Shown here: positions 5,071 to 59,203 of the stretch, piece after piece
Numbering within the stretch: position 1 is the first letter of the stretch
Layout: the number at the start of each line of letters is the position of its first letter
Assembly (NCBI GenBank): GCA_027319565.1
Contig: DAHVNA010000005.1
Coordinates: 548 to 64,547, forward strand
Source: Elusimicrobiota bacterium
GTDB lineage: Bacteria > Elusimicrobiota > Elusimicrobia > UBA1565 > UBA9628
Reading direction: 5' to 3'
Length of the DNA stretch: 64,000 nucleotides
Program-made: the position numbers and the translations under genes
The notes under the pieces: model-generated
What the model was told of the DNA's origin: nothing
Databases searched by the model: none
What the model saw: only the letters and a program-made list of their open reading frames with translations

Positions 5071-5783
5071 GATGGTCCTTCCTTTGCCGTGATAAAAGCG
5101 GACATACGTTCTGAGTCTCCTTTGCGAAATGAGAAATATCCCGGCGAACAAACGGTGCATTCCGAACTTAGATAAATTGAATTTTCCGACAGCCCTGCGC
5201 GCAATAGCTGGTTTTTGGCTTCGAGATTTAAATCAAGACGCAGCCCTTTTTTGTCCTCAATAAAGTCTTCAGGTGGGAAAAATTCCTTAATTTCAGGGCC
5301 CACTTCGCAACAGCAAGATCCGATGTGAGGGCCGGCCGAGGCCAACAACTCTTCCGCGTTGACGTTAAAAACTCTCTGCATCTCGGTAGCGGCAATATAG
5401 GCGAAACTTTTGGCCATTCCCCGCCACCCGGCGTGAAAAACCCCGAAAACCGGGCGTTTTCTGGACCATATAAAAAGTGGAACACAATCGGCCACCAAGA
5501 CCATGGGAATCACTGCTTCTTGGCGACAAAACCAGCCATCGCCTTCAAGAATCTTTTCTTCGTCTTTCTCGGCCTCAAAAATCTTCGTTCCGTGGACTTG
5601 GCTTAAGACACGCGGAGTTTTTCCGCTCAAGTCCGAGATTTCCGAAAAAACTCGTTTGCGAACCTGAAGGTCTTTGAGGTTTCCCAAAGAACGTTTAGTC
5701 AAACCGCCGAAAAAGCCGCACTCGGCCATCCGCGAGTCCTGCCAGAGGCTTTGCGATAAAACTTCAGGCTCTCTGATCGGCAT
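5058..5783 (-). CDS. pgeF: Peptidoglycan editing factor PgeF / YfiH (DUF152 multicopper polyphenol oxidoreductase-like)
   Basis: Conserved VFHAGWRG and CCCEVG motifs typical of YfiH/PgeF. Positioned downstream of ftsZ as ylmD is in Bacillus. Confidence 0.8.
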   Translation of the reverse strand: MPIREPEVLSQSLWQDSRMAECGFFGGLTKRSLGNLKDLQVRKRVFSEISDLSGKTPRVLSQVHGTKIFEAEKDEEKILEGDGWFCRQEAVIPMVLVADCVPLFIWSRKRPVFGVFHAGWRGMAKSFAYIAATEMQRVFNVNAEELLASAGPHIGSCCCEVGPEIKEFFPPEDFIEDKKGLRLDLNLEAKNQLLRAGLSENSIYLSSECTVCSPGYFSFRKGDSERMSAFITAKEGPSCHK

Positions 5784-11850: not shown

Positions 11851-13380
11851 ATGAATCAGAAAAAAAATTCGGGCTTTTATTTGAGGGGGGCTCTATTCTC
11901 AGTTTCCCTTTTTGTTTTTCCGCGCATTTTGACGGCCGCGACCTGGATGGTTCCCGTCGCGCCTCAGGGGCCTTTTGACCGGGTTTACTATCCGCAAAAT
12001 GCGCCGGTGGGTTCCGACTTAAGTGTCGGGCCGCTTGAATGGACGCAAATGAATCTCGGGGCCGATCACAATGCGGACGTTCCTCTATTAGGGCAAATGC
12101 CGCCGTGGTCTAAAAATGGAGTTTCTTGGAGATTTGCGGAAGCTCGGGCTTGGCCTTTGGAAAACAAAGATCCATTCGGAACCCATATCTACGGCGAAGT
12201 TGAGGCGGGCGCGGTTCAAACTCAGTTTTACGGAAACGCTCTTGGAGTTTCCGTTGTTGATGGAATCCTCTATGCCGAAAGCGATGATATGTTTGCCTAC
12301 GCCTTAAACATGAAAACGGGGCAGTTGATCTGGCGCACGAGTCCGGTGGGAAATCATTTAATGGGAAATCCCATTGTTAAAGGCCGTTTTGTTTATTTGT
12401 CGGCGGGTGGAGTGGGATTTAATTTCGCAAACGTCGTCAAATACGCAAAAACCCCTTACAAAGCCGTTCGAGGAATGGATTTTAGTTATAACGGAATCTA
12501 TGCTTTGGATCGCTTGACCGGCCGTCTTATTTGGCGACATTCAAGCGTGGGCGAAGCCATGCCAACTCCCGCCGTCCATGGAGATGTTCTTTATTTCGCG
12601 ACCGGAAGCGGCTCTGTCCATGCCGTTAACCGCCACACCGGCCAAACAATATGGACGACTCACTTAACGGGAAGCGACAATATGTCGAGTCCCGCCTACT
12701 ATCAAGGCAAACTTTATCTTGCTCTCGCCATTAAACCGCGCCTTTATTGTCTTGACGCCAAGACCGGAAAGGTTTTATGGAAAAACACGCTTCCCGGCGC
12801 GGCCAATACCGGAATGGGAGACGTCTCTCCGGCTGTTTCAAACGGCGTCGTCATTATGGACGCAGTCACTCATCCCAAAATCGTAAGAGGTAAAACGACG
12901 CTAGATCCAGTGATTCGGGCTTTTGATTCTGATTCCGGCGCGCCGCTTTGGACCGCGTCCATGGGACGAGGCCCCAAACCTCCGGCTTTTAAAGGCGGGG
13001 TTCCCATGATTTATGGAGGAGTGGTTTATGTCGGTTCGCCAGTCAACGGAGCTTATCAGGCGCGCGATTTAAAAACCGGAAAACTGTTGTGGAAATGGAA
13101 TAAAATTTCTTCGGCCAGAAGCGCGCCTACCATGGATGACAACATCCTTTATATCGCCGGCGCGGAAAGCGTTTATGCGCTCAATCCGCGAACTGGGAAA
13201 GAAATAGGACACATCAAGATCGGCGGAAGAATGGGAATTGTGAGCCCGACAATCGTTGGGGGGACAATTTATTTGTCCAATACCTGGGATTGGATTGTCG
13301 CGACTCCAAAACAAGATGTTTTAACCTCCAATCAAGAGAAACAGAAACAAACGCAGCCAGCCCAACAGAAAAACAATTAG
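11851..13380 (+). CDS. Secreted PQQ-like beta-propeller repeat protein (BamB-like fold)
   Basis: Signal peptide. Repeated ~40-aa units with G.LYA/G.V.ALD..TGK.LW patterns characteristic of PQQ/WD-like propellers. 509 aa. Confidence 0.7.
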   Translation: MNQKKNSGFYLRGALFSVSLFVFPRILTAATWMVPVAPQGPFDRVYYPQNAPVGSDLSVGPLEWTQMNLGADHNADVPLLGQMPPWSKNGVSWRFAEARAWPLENKDPFGTHIYGEVEAGAVQTQFYGNALGVSVVDGILYAESDDMFAYALNMKTGQLIWRTSPVGNHLMGNPIVKGRFVYLSAGGVGFNFANVVKYAKTPYKAVRGMDFSYNGIYALDRLTGRLIWRHSSVGEAMPTPAVHGDVLYFATGSGSVHAVNRHTGQTIWTTHLTGSDNMSSPAYYQGKLYLALAIKPRLYCLDAKTGKVLWKNTLPGAANTGMGDVSPAVSNGVVIMDAVTHPKIVRGKTTLDPVIRAFDSDSGAPLWTASMGRGPKPPAFKGGVPMIYGGVVYVGSPVNGAYQARDLKTGKLLWKWNKISSARSAPTMDDNILYIAGAESVYALNPRTGKEIGHIKIGGRMGIVSPTIVGGTIYLSNTWDWIVATPKQDVLTSNQEKQKQTQPAQQKNN

Positions 13381-13392
13381 AAGGAAATCGCC

Positions 13393-14295
13393 CTAGTGGA
13401 TTTGAAAGCGATGGGAATAAGTAAAGGAATAGACATTATTCTTTTCCCCACTCCCCACTTCTGTTGCCCAGGCGGGGATATAGGTGAGAGTAAAATTAAG
13501 GGGACGATAGACCACAGAAATTCCGCCGCCGGCGGCGGTGTTGTCAGCGGAACTGGGCAGTAAAGCGCTTCCCGAGCTTGTCGCTTGACTTGTTTGAGCC
13601 GTGGGCGTTCCGCTGACGATATAACCAAAAAGAATCCATCTTAAAAATCCGGTGTTAAACTGCGGGGCAATTCCGGCGTCATATGAAAATCCCTGGGCAT
13701 TATAAATATTTCCAATCCCGGAATCATTTTCCATGAGATTGCGATATCCCATTCCCACCAGAATCGGCAGTCTAAAATTATTTCCCGAAAACGGATCAAA
13801 AACGATGTCGGCATTGGCGAGAGAACCGTTCGAAGTGGCCTTATCACCGCTAAAGTCCGTGCCTGATAAATGCCCGTATCCCGCCATGACGCCGATGCCC
13901 CAGTGATCGGTAAGGCTGTAAATTGCGGAAGTTCCAATTCCTTCGCCATTCATCTTCCAGGTTGAATTAGGCGTTGCTGGACAGGAACCCGAACAACTTT
14001 CAGAAAGAGCATATTGATCATAGCCTGGGGAAACGGAAACATCCAACGCCCCGGAAGAAAGCGGCTTGGTGGGAAGAGAAGAAGCCATCAGGTATCCCAT
14101 CATTTCCTTAATATCCGAAGCGGCGACCGGCGATTGAAAACAAAAAACAATCGCGGCACACAAAATAATTTTCTCAAACAAGTTCAGATGCCAGCGACAA
14201 GAGTTCTGTTCCCCGAGATTTTTCAAGGTATACTCCATTGACAAATAATATAGAAGAATCCTCTCCCCCTTGCAAGAGAGCTCCAACGCATCCAC
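13393..14295 (-). CDS. Putative outer-membrane protein (hypothetical). Start uncertain, possibly Met at 14238.
   Basis: N-terminal hydrophobic signal-like segment (IILCAAIVFCFQSPVAA). Gly/Ser/Tyr-rich alternating pattern suggestive of a beta-barrel. No family match recognised. Confidence 0.5.
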   Translation of the reverse strand: MDALELSCKGERILLYYLSMEYTLKNLGEQNSCRWHLNLFEKIILCAAIVFCFQSPVAASDIKEMMGYLMASSLPTKPLSSGALDVSVSPGYDQYALSESCSGSCPATPNSTWKMNGEGIGTSAIYSLTDHWGIGVMAGYGHLSGTDFSGDKATSNGSLANADIVFDPFSGNNFRLPILVGMGYRNLMENDSGIGNIYNAQGFSYDAGIAPQFNTGFLRWILFGYIVSGTPTAQTSQATSSGSALLPSSADNTAAGGGISVVYRPLNFTLTYIPAWATEVGSGEKNNVYSFTYSHRFQIH

Positions 14296-14387: not shown

Positions 14388-17300
14388 ATGAGAAAAATAA
14401 TCGCTCTGCTTATCACCGCCACTCTCTGCGCGCCTGGTCCTCTTTTCGCTGAAAGTTTAGAAACTTCTTTTCAAGCGGAAACTCCCGCCCAAGTTCTTAG
14501 CCTTACGCAATCTCCTCTTAATATAGAATCCGCGAGTACAATTCCCGCCGATAATTTAAGCCCGGTCGGTTTTGAAAACGGAGAATCTCTCTCAGAAACG
14601 CCTCTTCAACGAATGCATTCTCCCAAAACGCTCAATCGGGTGAGAATTCTTGAACTTAAGCCCGAGACGCCCGCGCTAAAAGAAAAAGCGAGTCCGGTTC
14701 AAAAAATAAAAGGGCGCATCTCTAAAACCATCCAATACGCGAAAAAATCAATCAAGGTTAATCGCCAAAACCTCGCGGGAAATCTCTCTCAATTTTTCGA
14801 TCGCTCGGCGCATTTTTCAAACTACAAAGACTCTCCCGTCATCACCCCCTCTGGAAAAGAAACTCGGTCTTTAAAACCTTGGCAGAAGGCGGGAACTCTA
14901 GCAACGGCGACTGCGTCTCTGACCAAAGTTCAAAGCGCCATCGCAAGTCCTCTCGCGACTCCGCAAAACGCGCCGGTTCAACACTCTCTTTTAACTTCCC
15001 TTTTTAGCGCCAGCGGACTCACTCATCTGGTTCTCACCGCCGCTGCGGTTGTCTTTACTTATTGGGTTTGGAAAAAATTTGGATCCAACTTGCGCCAAAA
15101 AATTTCTGATTGGAAAAATAACAGAAGCAAAAGCTGGAAAGAAAGCGCTCGAAAACAAAAAGAGGAAAATGCGCCCGTTTCCTCTATTACCTTCGCCGAT
15201 GTCGCCGGGCAAGACAAAGCCGTCAGCGAGGTCAGAAAAATCATTTCCGCCTTTGAGTCTCCCTCTAAATATAAAAGCGTGAACGCCCGTTTTAAGCCTC
15301 GAAACGCCTTCCTGCTCGTTGGCCCGCCGGGAACGGGAAAAACCCTCTTAGCCGAGGCTGTGGCCGGAGAACTTAAACTCGACAAGAGTTCTTTTTTCAA
15401 AACCGACGGTTCTTCGTTTATGAACAAATTTGTCGGAGTCGGCCCCGATGCCGTTCGCAAATTTTTTGAGAAAGCGCGAGAACAAAGCAAAAAATCGGGG
15501 AAGCCTTCCCTGATATTTATCGATGAAATCGATGGATTCGGAAACCGCGGCGGAAACGCCGACAGCGGAGCCGACCACGAAAAACAAATGACCATCGGCG
15601 CTCTTCTAACTGAAATGAACAACCTCTCGGGACCGGACTATAACGTTCTGGTCATCGGCGCCACCAACGAATTCGGAAAACTCGACAAAGCTCTTAAGCG
15701 CTCGGGCCGGTTTGGAACGCATATCGCGCTTGAAAATCCCGATCTTCAAGGACGCGAGAGCATCTTGCGCCTCCACACGAAAGAGGCGCGCTTATCCTCG
15801 GATGTCGATCTCCATAAAATCGCGGAAAAGATAACGGGCTTTTCGGGAGCCGACATCGAAGCGGTCGCCCAAAGGGCGACTGAAATCGCCGTTGAAGACA
15901 ATCAAGCCGACTTTATTTCTCAAGCCGATTTTGAAAAAGCGGTCGAAGGCATCAAAGAAAACATCAATCAAAAGGCCAAAGCCGTCGATAGCTCCAACAA
16001 CTCCTCTACGATATCCGTTCAATTTGAGGACCCCGAAACCATGACGACCGGATTTTCCCAGATCGCCGGACAAGACGAGGCTAAAGCGGAAGTCGCGGAA
16101 CTCGTCGAGCAAGTCAAAAATCGGTCGCGCTATCTTGAGATTAACCCGCAATTCCGCCCGCTGCGCGGAGCTCTATTATTTGGACCTCCGGGAACGGGAA
16201 AAACCTTGATGGCCCGGGCGATCGCGAAAGAATCCGGAGCCCTTTTCTTTAAAGTAGACGGAACCGAATTTCTCAAAAAGTTCGTAGGCGAAGGCCCCCA
16301 GGCGGTGCGGGATATTTTCGAGGCCGCGTCCTATGAATCTAAAAGAGAGAAAAAGCCGGCCATCATATTCATCGATGAAATTGACGCCATCGGCCGCGCC
16401 CGAGGTTCGGATCTAAACGGAAGCCAAGACGCCCTGGTCAACCAGCTTTTAACCGCCATTGACGGATTTAAAACCGAAAATAATGTCACCGTCATCGGGG
16501 CGACCAATAAGCCGGAATCTCTCGACCCCGCTTTAACTCGCGGCGGCCGGCTTGAACTTCAAATTCCCATCGGGCTTCCCGATGTCTTGGGGAGAGAAGG
16601 AATTCTCAAGGTCCACACCCAGGGTATCGCGCTGGATTCCAGCGTCAACCTCAGGGAAATCGCGCAACAAACTGCGGGTTTTTCCGGAGCGGATATGGAA
16701 AGCCTGGTCATGAAAGCGACTTCCGCCTCCATTAAACGCGGAGCCAAGGCCCTTTCCGAAACGGATTTTATTTCTTCAATCGATCGCGTCCAGCTGGGAA
16801 TGGAGAGAAAACTCGTCATGCCGGAAGATGAAAAAGAAGTCGTCGCCTATCATGAAACCGGACACGCCCTGGTCTCCCATCTTCTGCCGGACTCCGACCC
16901 CATCCGCAAAGTCACCATCGTCCCGCATGGCCTTAACGCCTTGGGGTTGATGCAAGCGGTCTCCGATGTCGAGAGAAGAATTCAAAGCCGCTCCTATCTA
17001 GTCGCCCGAATGGCGGTCGCCTTGGGCGGAAGAGCCGGGGAAGAACTCCTAAATGAGAGAATTTACGGGAAAAAAGAAAATTTCTCCGGGGCATCCAACG
17101 ATCTTGAGAAAGCGACTGAAATCGCCAGATATATGGTGATGAAATTTGGGATGTCCGACAAAATCGGGTTGGTCAGCTACGGATTTGAAAACGAGCGGCA
17201 AAATCAGAAGCCAATGAGCGAAGAAACTTCCAAGGCCATTGAAGCCGAGGTGAAATCTCTTGTAGAACAAGCCTATCATACGGCGAGAGAGACCCTTGAA

Positions 17301-17411
17301 AACAACTGGGAAACCTTTAAAGCCGCCGCGGAAGAGCTTAAGAAAAAAGAAACTCTCCGCGGGGAAGATTTCGATCGCTTAATTCCCAAGGCCCAAAACC
17401 TCAAAAAATAA
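14388..17411 (+). CDS. FtsH-family ATP-dependent zinc metalloprotease with tandem (duplicated) AAA+ modules: signal peptide, ~200-aa periplasmic region, TM, AAA-1, AAA-2, M41 peptidase
   Basis: Two complete FtsH-type AAA modules, each with Walker A (LLVGPPGTGKTL / LLFGPPGTGKTL), pore loop FVG, Walker B IFIDEID, SRH with Arg fingers and FtsH-type lid (GFSGAD). Then M41 HEXXH (YHETGHAL), GGRAGEE third zinc ligand and GASND motif. 1007 aa. Confidence 0.8.
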   Translation: MRKIIALLITATLCAPGPLFAESLETSFQAETPAQVLSLTQSPLNIESASTIPADNLSPVGFENGESLSETPLQRMHSPKTLNRVRILELKPETPALKEKASPVQKIKGRISKTIQYAKKSIKVNRQNLAGNLSQFFDRSAHFSNYKDSPVITPSGKETRSLKPWQKAGTLATATASLTKVQSAIASPLATPQNAPVQHSLLTSLFSASGLTHLVLTAAAVVFTYWVWKKFGSNLRQKISDWKNNRSKSWKESARKQKEENAPVSSITFADVAGQDKAVSEVRKIISAFESPSKYKSVNARFKPRNAFLLVGPPGTGKTLLAEAVAGELKLDKSSFFKTDGSSFMNKFVGVGPDAVRKFFEKAREQSKKSGKPSLIFIDEIDGFGNRGGNADSGADHEKQMTIGALLTEMNNLSGPDYNVLVIGATNEFGKLDKALKRSGRFGTHIALENPDLQGRESILRLHTKEARLSSDVDLHKIAEKITGFSGADIEAVAQRATEIAVEDNQADFISQADFEKAVEGIKENINQKAKAVDSSNNSSTISVQFEDPETMTTGFSQIAGQDEAKAEVAELVEQVKNRSRYLEINPQFRPLRGALLFGPPGTGKTLMARAIAKESGALFFKVDGTEFLKKFVGEGPQAVRDIFEAASYESKREKKPAIIFIDEIDAIGRARGSDLNGSQDALVNQLLTAIDGFKTENNVTVIGATNKPESLDPALTRGGRLELQIPIGLPDVLGREGILKVHTQGIALDSSVNLREIAQQTAGFSGADMESLVMKATSASIKRGAKALSETDFISSIDRVQLGMERKLVMPEDEKEVVAYHETGHALVSHLLPDSDPIRKVTIVPHGLNALGLMQAVSDVERRIQSRSYLVARMAVALGGRAGEELLNERIYGKKENFSGASNDLEKATEIARYMVMKFGMSDKIGLVSYGFENERQNQKPMSEETSKAIEAEVKSLVEQAYHTARETLENNWETFKAAAEELKKKETLRGEDFDRLIPKAQNLKK

Positions 17412-17454: not shown

Positions 17455-18129
17455 GTGGATCAGTCTCTTATTTTCAATTATTTAAAGCGCACGCGCATCA
17501 TCGAAGCGCCCAAGTCAACCTTGGCGACCTTTGGGGCGACCCATATTGAGTATCACCTCATCTCTCCCATTGACAACCTTAAGGATAAAACGCGCTTAAG
17601 GCAAGGGGAAGTGGTCAGTTCAAAGCCCCAGATTATTACGCCTCAAAGCCTCTCCGAGAGATTTGAAGGCTTTGGCCCCGAATCGGATGAGTTCGCCAGC
17701 TGGCTTAAATCGAGCTACGGAGAATTTTTAAGAGCGCTGGAATATCAATTTCAAAACAAGGGTTTTTCAGCCCAAGTGATTTCCGAGTCTCCCAAAGAAG
17801 TGGCTACGCGAATTCAACTCGACATTCAATCGCGAAAACTGTCCAACCAAGCCGTCATCAGCTGTCCGGACGCCGCGTGGTCCTTGGCATTGATGAAGTT
17901 TACGCTCGATGAATCGGCCCGCTCTTTTCCCGTTCATCTGCGCGACATGGAACGCCGCGGAATGTTTAACCCGGAAAAATTCCAGGAAGACCGACACCGG
18001 AGGGAAATCGAATCTTTGTTTGAAAAAGCCGCGTCTGGAGACAAAGATATTTTGCCGGTCCTAGGAACGAAATTAAAAGATTATGGGCTTTTCCCGGAAT
18101 ACGAAGACCGCTACCTCAGCTTCTTTTAA
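17455..18129 (+). CDS. Hypothetical cytoplasmic protein
   Basis: 224-aa ORF, TATAAT-like box upstream (gtataat at about 17441). No recognisable motifs. Confidence 0.5.
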   Translation: MDQSLIFNYLKRTRIIEAPKSTLATFGATHIEYHLISPIDNLKDKTRLRQGEVVSSKPQIITPQSLSERFEGFGPESDEFASWLKSSYGEFLRALEYQFQNKGFSAQVISESPKEVATRIQLDIQSRKLSNQAVISCPDAAWSLALMKFTLDESARSFPVHLRDMERRGMFNPEKFQEDRHRREIESLFEKAASGDKDILPVLGTKLKDYGLFPEYEDRYLSFF

Positions 18130-19657
18130 AGCCGCGCTTTTCTCCCTTGTGGGATTATCCCTATTTCCTATCAATGCGCGCGCTCAAATAAGCCCGCAAG
18201 TCATTCAAACGATTCAGGAAGAAAAAAGGCGCCTTGAATCAAATCCACAGCTCATCAAGGCCCTAGCCAAAAGAATCTCCGACTCATCCATTGGAAATAA
18301 AATTTCTCTCTCAAAAAATAGTCTTGAGAGAACCAAAGAAATAGAGGCTTGGCTGCTCAAAAATCCCGAAGCGGGGGCCATTATCGCCTTGGGCATGGCC
18401 GAAGACGACGCTAACGGAAACCATGCCTTTGAAAACAGGATGAGTCAACAACTCAGCCAATTTGAGCCCAATCCCGGAGCGGTCCACAATGCTTATTACC
18501 GGCTTAAACGAGCCAGCCGAACCGAACGATCGATGCTTTCCGATAAAACCATGACTAATGAAGAGAGAGTAGAAATACTCAACAATCTCTTTGAGGGCCG
18601 CGGAAGCGGCTCAAAGGCCATCATTCGCCGGATGCAAAAAAGTTCTTCCAGCCAATCTCCAGCCACGACTTTGACGGGAAACTTCTATAACCGATTGAGC
18701 GCGTCCAACCTCTCCGGTTATTCGCCTAATGTCGCGGCGCTGCAAAGTCAAATGGCCAGGGAAAACGTTCCCGGCGCTCCGCCCTTGGTGGTCACAGGAT
18801 ACCTTGATGGCAAAACCCTCTCTTATCCCGCCTACGCAATGAAATTCGATCTGTCCAATCTCAAATCGCGCCTCACCCAGGAAGAATCTTTGGCCTTGGC
18901 TAAAGAGCTCGGAATTTCCATTTCCGAACAACAAGCGAAAGACCCCGCCACGCTTTCATCGTTATTAGAAAAAGCTCAAAGAAAAGGGGTTTTGCTTCCA
19001 AAAGATTTCCAGATTCAAATGGAAACGCTTTCTCGCGCTCAAAAGGCTATCGAAGCCTTTGAAAAATTCGCGCAACAAGCTCAAAATCCTAAAAAAATTA
19101 CGTTAGGGTTTATCGCTCAATTAGGCAATCTCCAAAGAGAGGCTTCCCGATGGATCAACGCGGCTTTTCTGGAAGAAGAAATCAGCCGCGTGCTTAAAGA
19201 AGAGAAAAGTCTTTCTCCCCAACTTAAAGAAGCGATCGCCGCTTGCCCTGTCTCCGCTCAGGAAAAAGGAGAATATCTCCAGCGCGGGCAAAATTTTTTC
19301 GAGAAACTCAACGCCCTCAATTCAAGCGATTTCAAAGCCTTGACCGATCTTGTCAATCACTGGCCCCAAAAATCCAAGGAAGCCGATCATCTCATGCAAA
19401 AAAGCTCTCAAATGAGACCGCATCTTTTTACGGATGTTGAAGATTTTGTCGCCGTCCCTTATCGCCTCGCTTCCCTTTCTCAACCGGAACCGCGCTGGAA
19501 AAGCTGGGTCAACAAAATCGCCCGCAACTTCTTTTCATGGACCAGCTACGGCGAACAACTGAAAGCTTTGGATTCGCAAAGGAAAACCCTCAAAAATATT
19601 TTCTTAAGCATCGCTATCGGAGACCAAACCGCCGCACGCCGAATGCTCAACCCTTAG
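18083..19657 (+). CDS. Hypothetical secreted alpha-helical protein
   Basis: 524 aa. Signal peptide (ALFSLVGLSLFPINARA-Q). Overlaps upstream gene by 47 nt. No known domain recognised. Confidence 0.55.
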   Translation: MGFSRNTKTATSASFKAALFSLVGLSLFPINARAQISPQVIQTIQEEKRRLESNPQLIKALAKRISDSSIGNKISLSKNSLERTKEIEAWLLKNPEAGAIIALGMAEDDANGNHAFENRMSQQLSQFEPNPGAVHNAYYRLKRASRTERSMLSDKTMTNEERVEILNNLFEGRGSGSKAIIRRMQKSSSSQSPATTLTGNFYNRLSASNLSGYSPNVAALQSQMARENVPGAPPLVVTGYLDGKTLSYPAYAMKFDLSNLKSRLTQEESLALAKELGISISEQQAKDPATLSSLLEKAQRKGVLLPKDFQIQMETLSRAQKAIEAFEKFAQQAQNPKKITLGFIAQLGNLQREASRWINAAFLEEEISRVLKEEKSLSPQLKEAIAACPVSAQEKGEYLQRGQNFFEKLNALNSSDFKALTDLVNHWPQKSKEADHLMQKSSQMRPHLFTDVEDFVAVPYRLASLSQPEPRWKSWVNKIARNFFSWTSYGEQLKALDSQRKTLKNIFLSIAIGDQTAARRMLNP

Positions 19658-19668
19658 GGCATTTCCTC

Positions 19669-56721: not shown

Positions 56722-56890
56722 CGGCAAGTAACGAGAAGCAAAAGAAAGAAACGGAAGGCAACGGAAAGAAATGGAAAGTAACGGAAAGAAAAAGAAAGAA
56801 CCAGAAAGCAACGGCAAGTATTCGCAGTTTTCCCTTGCTTTCCGTTGCCTTCCGTTACCTTCTGTGTCTCTCCGTTTCTTCCGTTCTCAC
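56721..56890. repeat. About 10 tandem copies of a 10-bp repeat (aCGGaAAGnA) followed by a 10-nt spacer and about 6 inverted copies. Contains a 19-bp perfect inverted repeat.
   Basis: Read directly: acggcaagta acgagaagca aaagaaagaa acggaaggca acggaaagaa atggaaagta acggaaagaa aaagaaagaa ccagaaagca acggcaagta (56721-56820), then tcccttgctt tccgttgcct tccgttacct tctgtgtctc tccgtttctt ccgttctcac. Arms 56750-56768 and 56838-56856 are perfectly complementary. Confidence 0.7.
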
Positions 56891-57349
56891 AAAGGTCAGG
56901 CCACGACCGAAACGGTTTTGCTGTTTCCGATATTTATGTTCTTTCTTTTTGTATTCGCCAAAATATTCGCGATGCTGATTTTAGTCCAAAAAATGGAAAT
57001 CGCATCCTACTACGGCGCCCGGCGTTGGCAGCTTGAATCCCACAGAAATGAAAGCGCCTATCCGGACAACGGACTTGAAGGCGATATTCAAAATAAAATC
57101 AGCTCTTATCTTGGATACGGAAGTCCAACTCAGAGCTTTTTAGGCCTGGCGCCGACCGGATCTAACGGCGGGGCTTCTTTTCAGTGTACGCCGACCGAGT
57201 TTTGGCAGGTTTGCACTCTCAAAGTTCAAACCAAACCCATTGACATCGCCTGGATGTATCAATCCCCAGGATATACTTTCGAGGTGACAAAATACGTGCC
57301 GCACCGCGATCGCCCAATCCCATTTGTCCTTCCAGGAATGGGACCTTGA
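56864..57349 (+). CDS. TadE-like pseudopilin-type protein (GTG start)
   Basis: GTG at 56864 gives MSLRFFRSHKGQATTETVLLFPIFMFFLFVFAKIFAML..IASYYGAR, the TadE-like N-terminal pattern. The annotated ATG ORF from 56771 would read through the repeat array. Confidence 0.45.
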   Translation: MSLRFFRSHKGQATTETVLLFPIFMFFLFVFAKIFAMLILVQKMEIASYYGARRWQLESHRNESAYPDNGLEGDIQNKISSYLGYGSPTQSFLGLAPTGSNGGASFQCTPTEFWQVCTLKVQTKPIDIAWMYQSPGYTFEVTKYVPHRDRPIPFVLPGMGP

Positions 57350-57397: not shown

Positions 57398-59203
57398 ATG
57401 ATCGCCTCTTATATTATTGAAGTCGCCGCCAGCATCGCGTTTTTATCCGTTTTGATGCTCCTCATCGGCCCGGGAAAGCGCGGGAGCCTCAAGGCTCGGA
57501 TTTGGCTTTTTTTCCAGCGCAATTGGCTGTGGTTTGCGATCGTCGCGGGAGTGATTATCTCCATTGTCATTCCGATTTGGTATATGGCCGGGATGGAAGA
57601 AAGCGTTCGCAAATACATCATTGGAATTAATATCGCTTCCCTGCCGTGGGGAATCATCCAAACCTTGGTCTTTGTCGGATTTCTCTATTTACTCCAATAT
57701 GGCGGCGGATTCGCCCAATTCAGGAAATCTCGGGTCAAAGAGGGCCATGTCAATGTCAGGTTTTCAGACGTCATCGGTCTCAATGAGGCCAAGAAAGACG
57801 CCTGGGAAATGGTCCAACTCATAAAAGACCGCGCGGCCTTAAAAAAAGTCGGCGGGAAAATTCTTCATGGGATGCTCATGGTCGGACCGCCGGGATGCGG
57901 GAAAACTCTTCTCGCAAAAGCCATCGCCACCGAAGCTGGCGTTCCTTTCTTATCGGCCTCGGGCTCGGAATTTGTCGAGGTCTTTGTAGGGGTCGGAGCC
58001 GCGCGCGTCAGAAAGCTTTTCAAACAAGCCCGGCAATTTTCAAAAGCCTACGGGGCTTGCATCATCTTTATCGATGAATTGGAGGTTCTGGGGCGTTCTC
58101 GTGTTTATTTTGACGCCTTTGGCGGAAACCAGGAAGGCAATCAAACCCTCAATCAGCTTTTAGTTGAAATGGACGGTCTCAATGACGATGGAAGTCCGAT
58201 TGTCGTCATCGGAGCCATGAACGCCCAAGAAGAAGTCTTGGACGCCGCTCTATTGCGCCCCGGACGGTTTGACCGCACGATAGCCATCGGACGCCCGAAT
58301 CTCCAGGAACGCACCGAGATTTTTGATTACTACGCGAAAAAAATTAATCTTGATCCCAATATTGATATCGCGCGTTTGGCGAGAAAAGCGGTTTATAAAA
58401 CTCCGGCGGAAATAGAAAATATCCTTAAGGAATCGGCCCTGATTGCGACTCGCGATCGCCGGGAAGTGATCACTTACAAAGATATTTCCTCCGCTATTGA
58501 AAGAATCGAACTCGGAGTCGCTCATCGCCTCAATATGACGCCCCACGAAAGGGAAATGACCGCGTTTCACGAAGCGGGACACCTTCTGATCCTCTATTTG
58601 ACGCACCCCACTAATGACGTCTTTAAAGCGTCCATTATCCAGCGCGGAGGAATCTTGGGAGTCGTCCATTCCATTCCCAGAGAAGAGCTCTTTAGCTCTG
58701 ACATGAATACGCTCAAAGCCCATATCAAGGTCGCCTTGGGCGGGTACATGGCGGAAAAACTCAGGTTCGGCGTCACGACCGACGGCGTGGCCTCCGATTT
58801 CGCAAACGCGACGACCATCGCCCACAACATGGTTTGGAGATATGGGATGGGCGAAAAGGGATTTGTCGGAGATTACACCCGCATCCCGAAAGAACAGCTT
58901 TCCGAGGCGCTCAAAGAACGCCTTAACGCCGCCACCCAAAGACTTCTCCAACAATCAACGGAAGAAGTCGAGATGACGTTAAAAACCGAATCGGTGATTC
59001 TGGAGCGTTTCGCGCAGGAGCTTCTCAAGCGCGACGAACTCGATTACGATGAAATCGTGGCCATTTTCCAGGAATACGGAAAGCCACCCAAGTCTCTTCC
59101 CTCTAATTCCGAGGTCTCACAGCCCAAAACAGAGCCGGTGCTTCCCGTCATCGCCACTCATGAGACCCCAAGTCCTAATGAATCTTTAAAGCCGTTAGAA
59201 TAA
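57398..59203 (+). CDS. FtsH-like ATP-dependent zinc metalloprotease paralog (polytopic N-terminus, no periplasmic domain, Pro-rich C-terminal tail)
   Basis: 3-4 N-terminal TM helices. AAA module with variant Walker A GPPGCGKT, pore loop FVGVG, Walker B IFIDELE, SRH. M41 HEXXH FHEAGHLL. 601 aa. Confidence 0.8.
   Translation: MIASYIIEVAASIAFLSVLMLLIGPGKRGSLKARIWLFFQRNWLWFAIVAGVIISIVIPIWYMAGMEESVRKYIIGINIASLPWGIIQTLVFVGFLYLLQYGGGFAQFRKSRVKEGHVNVRFSDVIGLNEAKKDAWEMVQLIKDRAALKKVGGKILHGMLMVGPPGCGKTLLAKAIATEAGVPFLSASGSEFVEVFVGVGAARVRKLFKQARQFSKAYGACIIFIDELEVLGRSRVYFDAFGGNQEGNQTLNQLLVEMDGLNDDGSPIVVIGAMNAQEEVLDAALLRPGRFDRTIAIGRPNLQERTEIFDYYAKKINLDPNIDIARLARKAVYKTPAEIENILKESALIATRDRREVITYKDISSAIERIELGVAHRLNMTPHEREMTAFHEAGHLLILYLTHPTNDVFKASIIQRGGILGVVHSIPREELFSSDMNTLKAHIKVALGGYMAEKLRFGVTTDGVASDFANATTIAHNMVWRYGMGEKGFVGDYTRIPKEQLSEALKERLNAATQRLLQQSTEEVEMTLKTESVILERFAQELLKRDELDYDEIVAIFQEYGKPPKSLPSNSEVSQPKTEPVLPVIATHETPSPNESLKPLE

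Follow-up and report, generated by a model that had tools for sequence, protein, structure and literature searches.

To our knowledge, the characterized AAA+ proteases that carry motor and peptidase on one chain, such as FtsH and Lon, have only one ATPase ring; the unfoldases with double rings (ClpA, ClpC, Cdc48/VAT) pair with a peptidase on a different chain. A gene in the 64,000-nucleotide stretch of Elusimicrobiota DNA analyzed here (the window) raises the question of whether bacteria also contain FtsH-type proteases with two ATPase modules per chain and, if so, how the second module arose and what it could contribute. This coding sequence (14388..17411, plus strand) is complete and encodes 1007 aa plus a stop codon, as judged from the open reading frame list, Pfam matches and orthologues. 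Its product is probably a functional, membrane-anchored FtsH/M41 AAA+ zinc protease in which the AAA module has been duplicated in tandem, and which would assemble as a hexamer whose ATPase modules form two stacked rings.

Pfam analysis of the protein recovered two stretches of PF00004 (AAA), two of AAA_lid_3 and one Peptidase_M41 domain (PF01434; residues 810-998, E=3e-54). In combination with a regular expression search for motifs, these matches bear out the two complete FtsH-like AAA modules and the intact HEXXH M41 domain claimed in a preliminary description of this DNA, which had proposed such a domain search. The first AAA module, D1 (15171..15965, plus strand, residues 262-526; defined by Pfam, motifs, NCBIfam, dN/dS and pLDDT), is connected by a linker of ~21 aa (15966..16028, plus strand, residues 527-547; the gap between phmmer envelopes, with pLDDT <50 at 532-543) to the second module, D2 (16029..16802, plus strand, residues 548-805; defined by Pfam, motifs, NCBIfam, alignment and dN/dS), which is followed by the M41 zinc metallopeptidase domain (16803..17408, plus strand, residues 806-1007; defined by PF01434, invariant residues and dN/dS).

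The two modules contain a Walker A sequence (GPPGTGKT at 312 and 599), an FVG pore loop (348 and 632), a Walker B sequence ((L/I)IFIDE at 375 and 659), a TN...R.GR segment (426 and 706) and a GFSGAD lid (484 and 764), and HETGH is found at 822. The corresponding residues are K318, F348, D379/E380, sensor-1 N427 and Arg fingers R438/R441 in D1, plus K605, F632, D663/E664, the DGF motif at 692-694, sensor-1 N707 and Arg fingers R718/R721 in D2. In a 31-sequence alignment, the key motif columns of D2 are invariant, as are H822, E823, H826 and the third zinc ligand, D905. Across seven family members, the Walker A/B, FVG, sensor-1 and R.GR motifs are conserved in all seven for D1 and in six for D2; the orthologue P0006 has lost the aromatic pore-loop residue of D2 (SLQG), not that of D1. 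When compared to four orthologous loci, dN/dS values were 0.05-0.08 for D1, 0.05-0.08 for D2 and 0.05-0.06 for M41, so all three domains are under purifying selection. By these measures both AAA modules look catalytically competent, and the proposal that this is not a degenerate duplication is upheld by motifs that are kept in both modules and by a dN/dS of D1 equal to that of D2.

As judged from its domains, the protein belongs to the FtsH family, since it has an M41 domain, a classical-clade AAA module (D2) directly upstream and a predicted N-terminal anchor. Its whole-protein score against TIGR01241 (FtsH) was 717.5, compared to a cutoff of 600, but this value is the sum of two stretches, with D1 alone accounting for ~250 bits. 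The cutoff is passed because these stretches add up and, by subtraction, D2 plus M41 alone would be expected to score below it. Canonical FtsH proteins from E. coli, Thermotoga and Thermus (TIGR01241; PDB 7vhp, 2ce7 and 3kds) have in common with this protein an N-terminal membrane anchor, a classical-clade AAA module (FVG pore loop, SRH, Arg fingers) and a C-terminal M41 HEXXH domain, and the solved FtsH chains align end to end with D2 plus M41 at ~37-44% identity. Unlike canonical FtsH, which has one AAA module per protomer (type I), the tandem protein has two AAA plus lid modules per chain, has no FtsH_ext periplasmic domain (PF06480, absent when the whole protein was searched with Pfam), and begins with a signal-peptide-like segment, a periplasmic region of ~185 aa that is predicted to be mostly disordered, and a single clear transmembrane (TM) helix.

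Hydropathy analysis revealed exactly two hydrophobic segments, at residues 3-24 and 201-228, as expected from the one TM helix and signal-peptide-looking start that had been described previously, and these segments, with the positive residues after the second one, suggest N-terminal membrane anchoring and catalytic domains that face the cytoplasm. The first segment (14388..14450, plus strand, residues 1-21) contains MRK, a 12-residue hydrophobic core and APGPLFA followed by ES. This n-region, 12-residue h-region and 'APGPxFA' c-region are conserved among orthologues, the motif is also kept in single-AAA Elusimicrobiota relatives, and it looks like a signal peptidase I site, so the segment may be either cleaved or retained as an uncleaved signal anchor. 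The periplasmic region (14451..15002, plus strand, residues 22-205; defined by pLDDT, dN/dS and conservation profile) is poorly conserved (dN/dS 0.29-0.39 against the four orthologous loci) and predicted by AF2 to have a pLDDT <50 over 13-211, with short helices at 103-118, 126-140 and 166-175. It contains conserved islands at ~101-140 (QKIKxxISxxIQYAKK...NLxxxLSxFFDxS) and ~161-170 (SLKPWxKAG). Its reported enrichment in Ser, Thr, Pro and Ala is real (39% versus 26% in the remainder of the protein), but its reported low complexity is not, as the Shannon entropy is 3.2-3.9 bits versus 3.5-3.9 in the AAA region. No NCBIfam family matched residues 1-249, and no Pfam family matched the periplasmic region. 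The TM helix (15003..15074, plus strand, residues 206-229; defined by hydropathy, dN/dS and AF2), with positively charged KKF...RQK after it, has a dN/dS of 0.02-0.11, and a predicted helix of moderate pLDDT (208-261) runs from it into the basic cytosolic stalk that links it to D1 (15075..15170, plus strand, residues 230-261; defined by AF2 and sequence). This N-terminal design is not confined to the tandem form; it is common to single-AAA Elusimicrobiota FtsH-like proteins.

A second AAA module could also be produced by a sequencing or assembly error that mis-joins a tandem duplication, or the gene could be a pseudogene; a collapsed duplication was one of the outcomes that the preliminary description had named as fatal to its reading. 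The sole hint in this direction is the related MAG L005, in which only the last ~105 codons of the gene are left; this points either to a misassembly or to a gene that the cell can do without. Against an artefact or a recent duplication, D1 and D2 share only 40% identity over 270 aa, and a DNA-repeat search found motif-sized similarity only, the longest repeat covering 53 nt of the Walker A region with 74% identity. In addition, the reading frame is uninterrupted, purifying selection acts strongly on both modules, and a survey of related genomes found the same layout in six independently assembled orthologue clusters (975-1008 aa, 55-89% identity) as well as five MAG or metagenome loci, from different studies. 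An artefact was therefore rejected, and the chance that one explains the second module is negligible. The core of the previous reading (FtsH family, duplicated AAA module, intact M41) stands on Pfam, motifs, dN/dS and this repeat search, and the tandem layout is shared by a small set of uncultured Elusimicrobiota. For the truncated L005 reading frame, an IS3-type transposase fragment was considered as the identity of its unrelated N-terminal half, a guess that Pfam did not confirm.

The source of the second module is a separate issue, since it might have been acquired by gene fusion from a Cdc48-, VAT- or PAN-like classical AAA family. Like the tandem protein, p97/VCP/Cdc48, VAT and NSF have two classical AAA modules with a ~20-residue linker between them, and their sequence and fold matches cover both of its modules: the NCBIfam CDC48 model (TIGR01243) aligns over 252-790 in one stretch, and PDB sequence matches to Cdc48/p97/VAT score on a par with those to FtsH. 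However, the CDC48 score of 381 bits is far under the cutoff of 803 (802.65), and the tandem protein differs from these systems in being membrane-anchored, in carrying the protease on the same chain and in having no Cdc48-type N-domain. When modules were scored individually against NCBIfam, D1 gave 250 bits with FtsH_fam versus 208 with PAN and 162 with CDC48, and D2 also matched FtsH_fam best (287 bits), ahead of PAN (240) and CDC48, so both modules are FtsH-type. In a neighbor-joining analysis of the individual modules, of the kind the preliminary description had called for, D1, D2 and the single-AAA Elusimicrobiota proteins P0134, P0136, P0146 and P0156 formed a clade in 130 of 200 bootstraps, and a subfamily-specific 2-residue insertion before Walker A is common to D1, D2, P0134 and P0136. 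A fusion origin is thus very improbable.

The single-AAA proteins P0134, P0136 (MFI5362171.1), P0146 (MBI3288488.1) and P0156, two of which (P0136 and P0146) are annotated as Elusimicrobiota-derived, are 46-50% identical to D2 plus M41. They share with the tandem form a 'PGPSFA'-type signal peptide, an Ala/Pro-rich region with an FDG/FDRS motif, one TM helix and the indels, but have one AAA module only. The grouping of both D1 and D2 with proteins of the same N-terminal design suggests that the tandem duplication of the AAA module took place within an FtsH-like subfamily specific to the Elusimicrobiota, the ancestor of which would already have combined a signal-peptide-like start with a mostly disordered periplasmic tail and one TM helix. 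Within the clade, D1 and D2 were sisters in 59 of 200 bootstraps, and D2 joined the single-AAA proteins in 48 of 200.

The architecture also exists outside the Elusimicrobiota. An exhaustive search identified at least 27 other 50%-identity clusters with an AAA-AAA-M41 layout in other lineages, plus M41 proteins with three or four AAA modules. For example, there are two modules in P0163 and RTL41810.1 (Melainabacteria), three in P0009 (Obscuribacterales), P0122 and MGI9082343.1 (Thermoleophilaceae), and four intact ones in P0007 and P0123, while P0008, P0124 and P0150 are AAA-M41-AAA-M41 fusions of whole FtsH proteins. Like the Elusimicrobiota protein, to which they are 33-41% identical, the multi-AAA forms place two to four AAA modules before a single M41 domain, are mostly membrane-anchored and have catalytic motifs that are mostly intact in all modules; unlike it, they usually have the canonical two-TM topology, and some (P0007) have an FtsH_ext match on record. 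Their modules most closely resemble sibling modules of the same protein or those of other FtsH lineages, and therefore reflect duplication events separate from the Elusimicrobiota one, so that, by sequence similarity, many multi-AAA M41 forms arose independently. The FtsH-derived chloroplast import-motor protein Orf2971 (Ycf2) of Chlamydomonas is also reported to have two AAA+ domains but, unlike the tandem FtsH, is an organelle-encoded eukaryotic protein that has lost M41 and has a huge N-terminal extension (PMC9421593). Multi-AAA M41 proteins are named "FtsH" or "AAA family ATPase" in databases, and such pipeline labels hide their architecture. We found no description of a tandem-AAA FtsH in the literature covered, from which subscription papers were mostly absent, and no solved structure of an AAA-AAA-M41 protein.

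How could two modules be arranged in an active protease? The preliminary description had suggested a double ring like that of ClpA/ClpB/p97, which is a reasonable analogy. By analogy to other tandem AAA proteins, we propose a hexamer with ATPase rings in two tiers, in which D1 would lie beside the membrane and D2 on the M41 protease ring. Substrates would enter at D1, and the aromatic pore loops of both rings (F348 and F632) would thread them on to the M41 chamber. The second ring could add pulling force, processivity or grip, and would shift the protease about one ring height further from the membrane. We know of no characterized tandem classical-clade AAA protein (p97/Cdc48, VAT, NSF) that does not stack its rings. 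The D1-D2 linker is also similar in length to that of p97 (~21 versus 22 aa; PMC4730245). AF2 predicted confident folds for D1, D2 and M41 (pLDDT ~80-90; ~80-88 for D1), but the low-pTM model superposed only loosely on p97 D1D2 chains in Foldseek, over ~560-590 columns at 8.3-12 A rmsd, with a TM-score <=0.60 for D1D2-only chains.

Alternatively, D1 and D2 could sit side by side in one ring, with three chains forming a pseudo-hexamer of alternating modules and three M41 domains, as a covalent version of the alternating heterohexamers that m-AAA and cyanobacterial FtsH paralogues form. Module counts of two and three divide six, a ~21-aa linker could span neighboring subunits, the fusions P0008, P0124 and P0150 illustrate that FtsH units do become covalently linked, and the AlphaFold monomer models leave inter-domain geometry poorly defined (pTM 0.41 for the full length, 0.44 for the cytosolic part). 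However, the four modules of P0007 and P0123 could not fill a ring of six evenly and so fit stacking better than in-ring concatenation, and the inter-module gaps of 2-5 residues in P0007, P0121, P0141 and P0187 are short for in-ring bridging. In solved FtsH structures, the M41 domains close into a six-fold protease ring that could not be built from a trimer. We consider the side-by-side arrangement quite improbable.

If the rings are stacked, it does not follow that they do equal work. D1 is without the DGF inter-subunit signalling motif (MNNLSG is in its place), has a D1-specific 3-residue insertion, and accumulates changes faster than D2 when distant orthologues are compared (distances of 0.58-0.63 versus 0.37-0.43); the missing motif and faster evolution mean that D1 could be mechanistically subordinate. 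ATP binding by NSF-D2, and partly by p97-D1, mainly drives or stabilizes hexamer assembly, and by analogy D1 may be a structural or regulatory ring that uses ATP mainly for this purpose while D2 does the unfolding. Such a ring could compensate for loss of the canonical assembly platform of two TM helices plus FtsH_ext, since the protein has one TM helix after its signal peptide and no FtsH_ext. On the other hand, D379/E380, sensor-1, both Arg fingers and KFVG of D1 are kept in all seven family members, its dN/dS is equal to that of D2, and in P0006 the degenerate pore loop is that of D2. The DGF motif is also missing from the single-AAA relatives P0146 and P0156, in which the only ring must be active, and single-AAA relatives with the same N-terminal design do without D1 altogether. 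A regulatory D1 is therefore unlikely, though less so than the side-by-side arrangement.

It is possible, but as yet tentative, that the Elusimicrobiota protein is one case of an undescribed, repeatedly evolved class of multi-tier FtsH proteases with two to four fully active rings stacked between the membrane and one M41 ring. If so, the class would provide the first natural AAA proteases of 'type II and higher' in which motors and protease belong to one chain, and extra rings would be an evolvable means of tuning the unfolding or extraction power of FtsH, the unfoldase strength of which is still debated (PMC9601784). A natural two-ring FtsH, if both rings are active, would be a system for analyzing the contribution of a second ring (force, processivity, grip or substrate selection) and the way in which stacked rings that feed a fixed protease coordinate their nucleotide cycles. 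Single-ring paralogues, closely related and from the same phylum, provide natural controls, and the three- and four-module variants in other phyla would widen the comparison.

The genes around the tandem-AAA FtsH gene were also analyzed. The preliminary description had placed it divergently next to PQQ-propeller and OMP-like genes; this is correct for the OMP-like gene (13393-14295, minus strand), but the PQQ/BamB-like gene (11851-13380, plus strand) is on the same strand. As conserved partners both were rejected, since L001 has no OMP gene at this place, and L003 and L004 have neither of the two. A role in a defence system was also rejected because the PADLOC matches (IetA, TRIP13) reflect generic classical-AAA similarity only. 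Downstream are a 224-aa gene (17455..18129, plus strand; syntenic in L001-L005 and L009) and a 524-aa gene with a signal-peptide-like N-terminus (18083..19657, plus strand), which overlap by 47 nt. Neither product matched Pfam, NCBIfam or PADLOC families, and the 224-aa protein had no meaningful PDB sequence match. The 224-aa protein is conserved across the Elusimicrobiota (at least 142 homologue clusters) as a hypothetical protein that elsewhere is not encoded beside an FtsH gene, so it was rejected as a specific FtsH partner, and the single-AAA P0136 gene has neither gene downstream. Both genes are syntenic in all tandem-form loci. There is no terminator in the 43-nt gap before the 224-aa gene, which is probably co-transcribed with the tandem-AAA FtsH gene, and a terminator-like hairpin (19641-19664) is found at the end of the 524-aa gene.

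The gene at window positions 14388-17411 (+) is an intact 1007-codon open reading frame, and Pfam recognizes in its product two PF00004 (AAA) stretches, two AAA_lid_3 domains and a Peptidase_M41 domain at residues 810-998. A motif scan agrees with this layout, placing Walker A (GPPGTGKT) at residue 312 in the first AAA module (D1) and 599 in the second (D2), FVG at 348 and 632, (L/I)IFIDE at 375 and 659, TN...R.GR at 426 and 706, GFSGAD at 484 and 764, and HETGH at 822. The two AAA modules and intact M41 peptidase of the preliminary description are thus borne out, including by domain calls of the sort that it had proposed as a check. When the tandem protease was aligned with its orthologues and canonical FtsH proteins (31 sequences), the Walker A residues, D663/E664, N707 and R718/R721 of D2 were invariant, as were H822, E823, H826 and D905 of M41. 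The NCBIfam FtsH model matches two stretches of the protein and the CDC48 model a single stretch (252-790); for each module alone, FtsH_fam is the top match (D1 250 bits, D2 287 bits), with lower scores for proteasome-activating nucleotidase models (208 and 240 bits) and CDC48 (162 and 216 bits). Judged by its domain content, the protein is a member of the FtsH/M41 family that differs from canonical FtsH in lacking the single-AAA state and the FtsH_ext domain, and its likeness to type II AAA ATPases is confined to layout.

Hydropathy analysis finds only two hydrophobic segments, at residues 3-24 and 201-228. The periplasmic stretch, previously described as low-complexity, is indeed enriched in Ser, Thr, Pro and Ala (39% vs 26% in the rest of the protein), but its sequence entropy is about that of the AAA region, so by this measure it is not truly low-complexity. 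An 'APGPxFA' c-region kept across the orthologues (one of those used, P0005, has an N-terminally truncated gene call) suggests putative signal-peptide cleavage. In AlphaFold2 models, D1, D2 and M41 have pLDDT values of ~80-90 and residues 13-211 fall below 50; the only helices predicted within 13-211 (103-118, 126-140 and 166-175) lie in the same places as islands conserved among orthologues. The transmembrane helix is predicted to run on as a basic helix up to the start of D1, and the D1-D2 linker of ~21 residues is modeled with low confidence.

Several observations establish that the tandem, apparently competent AAA-AAA-M41 layout is real and conserved. D1 (262-526) and D2 (548-805) are 40% identical across 270 residues (E=2e-66), and their DNA similarity is confined to motif-sized patches, the longest being 53 nt at 74% identity over Walker A. 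The identical architecture is found in six orthologue clusters (P0001-P0006, 55-89% identity) and in independently assembled metagenomic loci, two of which (L002 and L003) are titled Elusimicrobia bacterium. In Nei-Gojobori comparisons with four orthologous loci, dN/dS was 0.05-0.08 for D1, 0.05-0.08 for D2, 0.05-0.06 for M41 and 0.29-0.39 for the periplasmic region. A collapsed or expanded repeat, the assembly artefact raised earlier as a potential refutation, and a decaying duplicate are therefore both excluded by the divergence of the modules, the lack of a long DNA repeat, the independent assemblies and the low dN/dS values; the last of these, with the intact motifs of both modules, also upholds the earlier view that the duplication is not degenerate.

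The 3' end that encodes M41 (window ~16800-17408) looks mosaic. Its dS is 1.9-2.7 against loci L001 and L002, compared with 0.33-0.57 over D1 and D2, whereas against L003 and L004 it is about 0.8-1.4, comparable to that of D1 and D2, a pattern that suggests within-gene recombination between strains.

An exhaustive search of 1.84 billion representatives placed four single-AAA proteins (P0134, P0136, P0146 and P0156) just under the orthologues, with 46-50% identity to D2+M41. Their N-terminal design matches that of the tandem protease throughout, comprising a signal-peptide-like start that ends in 'PGPSFA' or 'PAPAFA', an Ala/Pro-rich region of 150-190 aa with an FDG/FDRS motif, and one transmembrane helix, so the odd N-terminal region is a trait of the subfamily and not of the tandem form. 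Two of them, P0136 and P0146, come from Elusimicrobiota MAGs and are annotated as FtsH. A 2-residue insertion ahead of Walker A is common to D1, D2, P0134 and P0136, and a 5-residue insertion ahead of Walker B is found in D1, D2 and P0134 and is shorter in P0136, P0146 and P0156. When 179 AAA modules were placed in neighbour-joining trees, a clade uniting every D1 and every D2 with the four relatives was recovered in 130/200 bootstraps; D1 (199/200) and D2 (200/200) were each monophyletic. The best reading of these sequence comparisons is that the tandem arose by internal duplication of the AAA module, or by two very close paralogues fusing, inside an FtsH-like subfamily specific to Elusimicrobiota and before the seven known tandem members split.

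The two modules have since diverged in some features. D1 is the faster-evolving module between distant orthologues, bears three inserted residues after Walker A that D2 lacks, and reads MNNLSG where the DGF inter-subunit signalling motif has been lost. The loss of DGF need not mean an inactive D1, since the motif is likewise missing from the single-AAA relatives P0146 and P0156, and since in orthologue P0006 it is the D2 pore loop that has become SLQG while D1 retains KFVG.

By analogy, the protein may assemble as a hexamer in which a D1 ring would sit on a D2 ring and the D2 ring on an M41 ring, with substrate translocated by both AAA rings. To our knowledge, all characterised tandem classical-clade AAA proteins stack D1 on D2. 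In addition, the ~21-residue linker is about as long as that of p97, which is 22 aa (PMC4730245). Modules could alternatively be concatenated within a ring, but the existence of 4-module relatives and of inter-module gaps of only 2-5 residues in some relatives makes stacking the better fit. Superposition of p97 D1D2 chains on two AlphaFold2 monomer models (pTM 0.41 and 0.44) gave 8.3-12 Å rmsd and TM-scores <=0.60, and these models speak neither for nor against stacking. If the rings are stacked, added unfolding or extraction power is a possible benefit; whether FtsH itself is an intrinsically weak unfoldase is unsettled (PMC9601784).

The AAA-AAA-M41 layout is not unique to this organism. Among the 150 best representatives, to which domains were assigned by phmmer with D2 and M41 as queries, 27 50%-identity clusters outside the Elusimicrobiota tandem family have this layout, five have three AAA modules before M41, one has four, and two are FtsH-FtsH fusions. 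The first homology search added, with Pfam confirmation, a second 4-module protein (P0007), a 3-module protein from Candidatus Obscuribacterales (P0009) and a third FtsH-FtsH fusion (P0008). Source-named examples come from Thermoleophilaceae, Melainabacteria and other Cyanobacteria-labelled MAGs, under record names such as 'AAA family ATPase', 'ATP-dependent zinc metalloprotease FtsH' and 'cell division protease FtsH'. In most of these multi-AAA proteins each module retains Walker A/B, an aromatic pore loop and R.GR, and most have FtsH-like N-terminal hydrophobic segments. Sibling modules are mutual nearest neighbours in several (P0142, P0133, P0224, P0192 and P0148), in others each module is closest to a different canonical FtsH, and none groups with the Elusimicrobiota D1, which indicates, from module relationships, that AAA duplication in M41 proteins has happened repeatedly and independently.

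Among PDB matches there is no solved AAA-AAA-M41 structure; the matches are either FtsH, aligned in one stretch over D2+M41, or Cdc48/p97/VAT, aligned in two stretches and without a protease. Targeted searches of the accessible literature turned up no description of a tandem-AAA FtsH, the nearest published case being Chlamydomonas Orf2971/Ycf2, which is FtsH-derived with two AAA+ domains reported but, unlike the tandem protease, has lost M41 (PMC9421593). The interest of the system lies mainly in the multi-AAA FtsH proteases to which it points, a family that recurs and has apparently not been described, and in the natural single-ring controls within the same phylum.

The three whole-protein fusions (P0008, P0124 and P0150; AAA-M41-AAA-M41, 1021-1605 aa; 21 member sequences in the P0008 cluster) may represent FtsH heterohexamer pairs in covalent form. 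Four other proteins (P0131, P0145, P0135 and P0138) of 1400-2100 aa carry five or six FtsH-like AAA modules per chain without M41.

The genomic context of the tandem protease is without a functional clue, because upstream genes are not conserved, downstream proteins match no family, and the first downstream gene lies elsewhere away from FtsH. The protease gene lies downstream of a PQQ_2/BamB-like gene and diverges, as noted earlier, from an OMP_b-brl-like gene (13393-14295, -; E=2.6e-5, below the Pfam cutoff). The protease gene is not tied to these neighbours, since the OMP-like gene shows presence/absence polymorphism (L002 has it, at 86% identity, but L001 does not, and there the PQQ and protease genes lie only 185 bp apart), and neither gene was found upstream in L003 or L004. 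Downstream, a gene for a 224-aa cytoplasmic protein (17455-18129, +) and then a ~525-aa gene follow in every tandem-form locus, including that of the 62%-identical orthologue P0005, and are missing at the single-AAA relative P0136; no terminator-like site occurs downstream of the protease gene before 19641-19664. Neither product matched the family libraries (Pfam, NCBIfam and PADLOC), and PDB sequences gave no meaningful match to the 224-aa protein. This protein has at least 142 homologue clusters at 50-65% identity, all source-named ones from Elusimicrobiota, and looks like a phylum-specific core gene; in three distant genomes its gene adjoins Peptidase_S8 and/or DsbA/MauE genes, not FtsH.

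A second divergent FtsH-like gene (57398-59203, +; 601 aa), immediately following a weak TadE-like gene (56771-57349), encodes three or four N-terminal hydrophobic helices, one AAA module and an M41 domain with HEAGH; FtsH_ext was not found in it, and its FtsH_fam score of 457 bits is below the 600 cutoff. Several FtsH paralogues are thus present in the source genome. In locus L005 of a related MAG (5154-5780 of JAJZCM010000004.1, MAG JA2.bin36), the tandem protease is cut down to its final ~105 codons, which continue in frame from ~100 codons of unrelated sequence, with Pfam matching the M41 part alone and the downstream 224-aa and 527-aa genes intact; this is either a real deletion, making the gene dispensable, or a chimeric contig. 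Together, the paralogues and this reduced locus suggest that the tandem form acts as an accessory protease rather than in the housekeeping role.

Another Elusimicrobia MAG locus (L013, 1-4808 of JACQPG010000024.1) encodes a 2288-aa product with firmer AAA_2 and ClpB_D2-small matches and weak or faint Peptidase_M50 and AAA matches; its gene adjoins a 1097-aa LonC-like gene, another unusual AAA/protease combination in the phylum.
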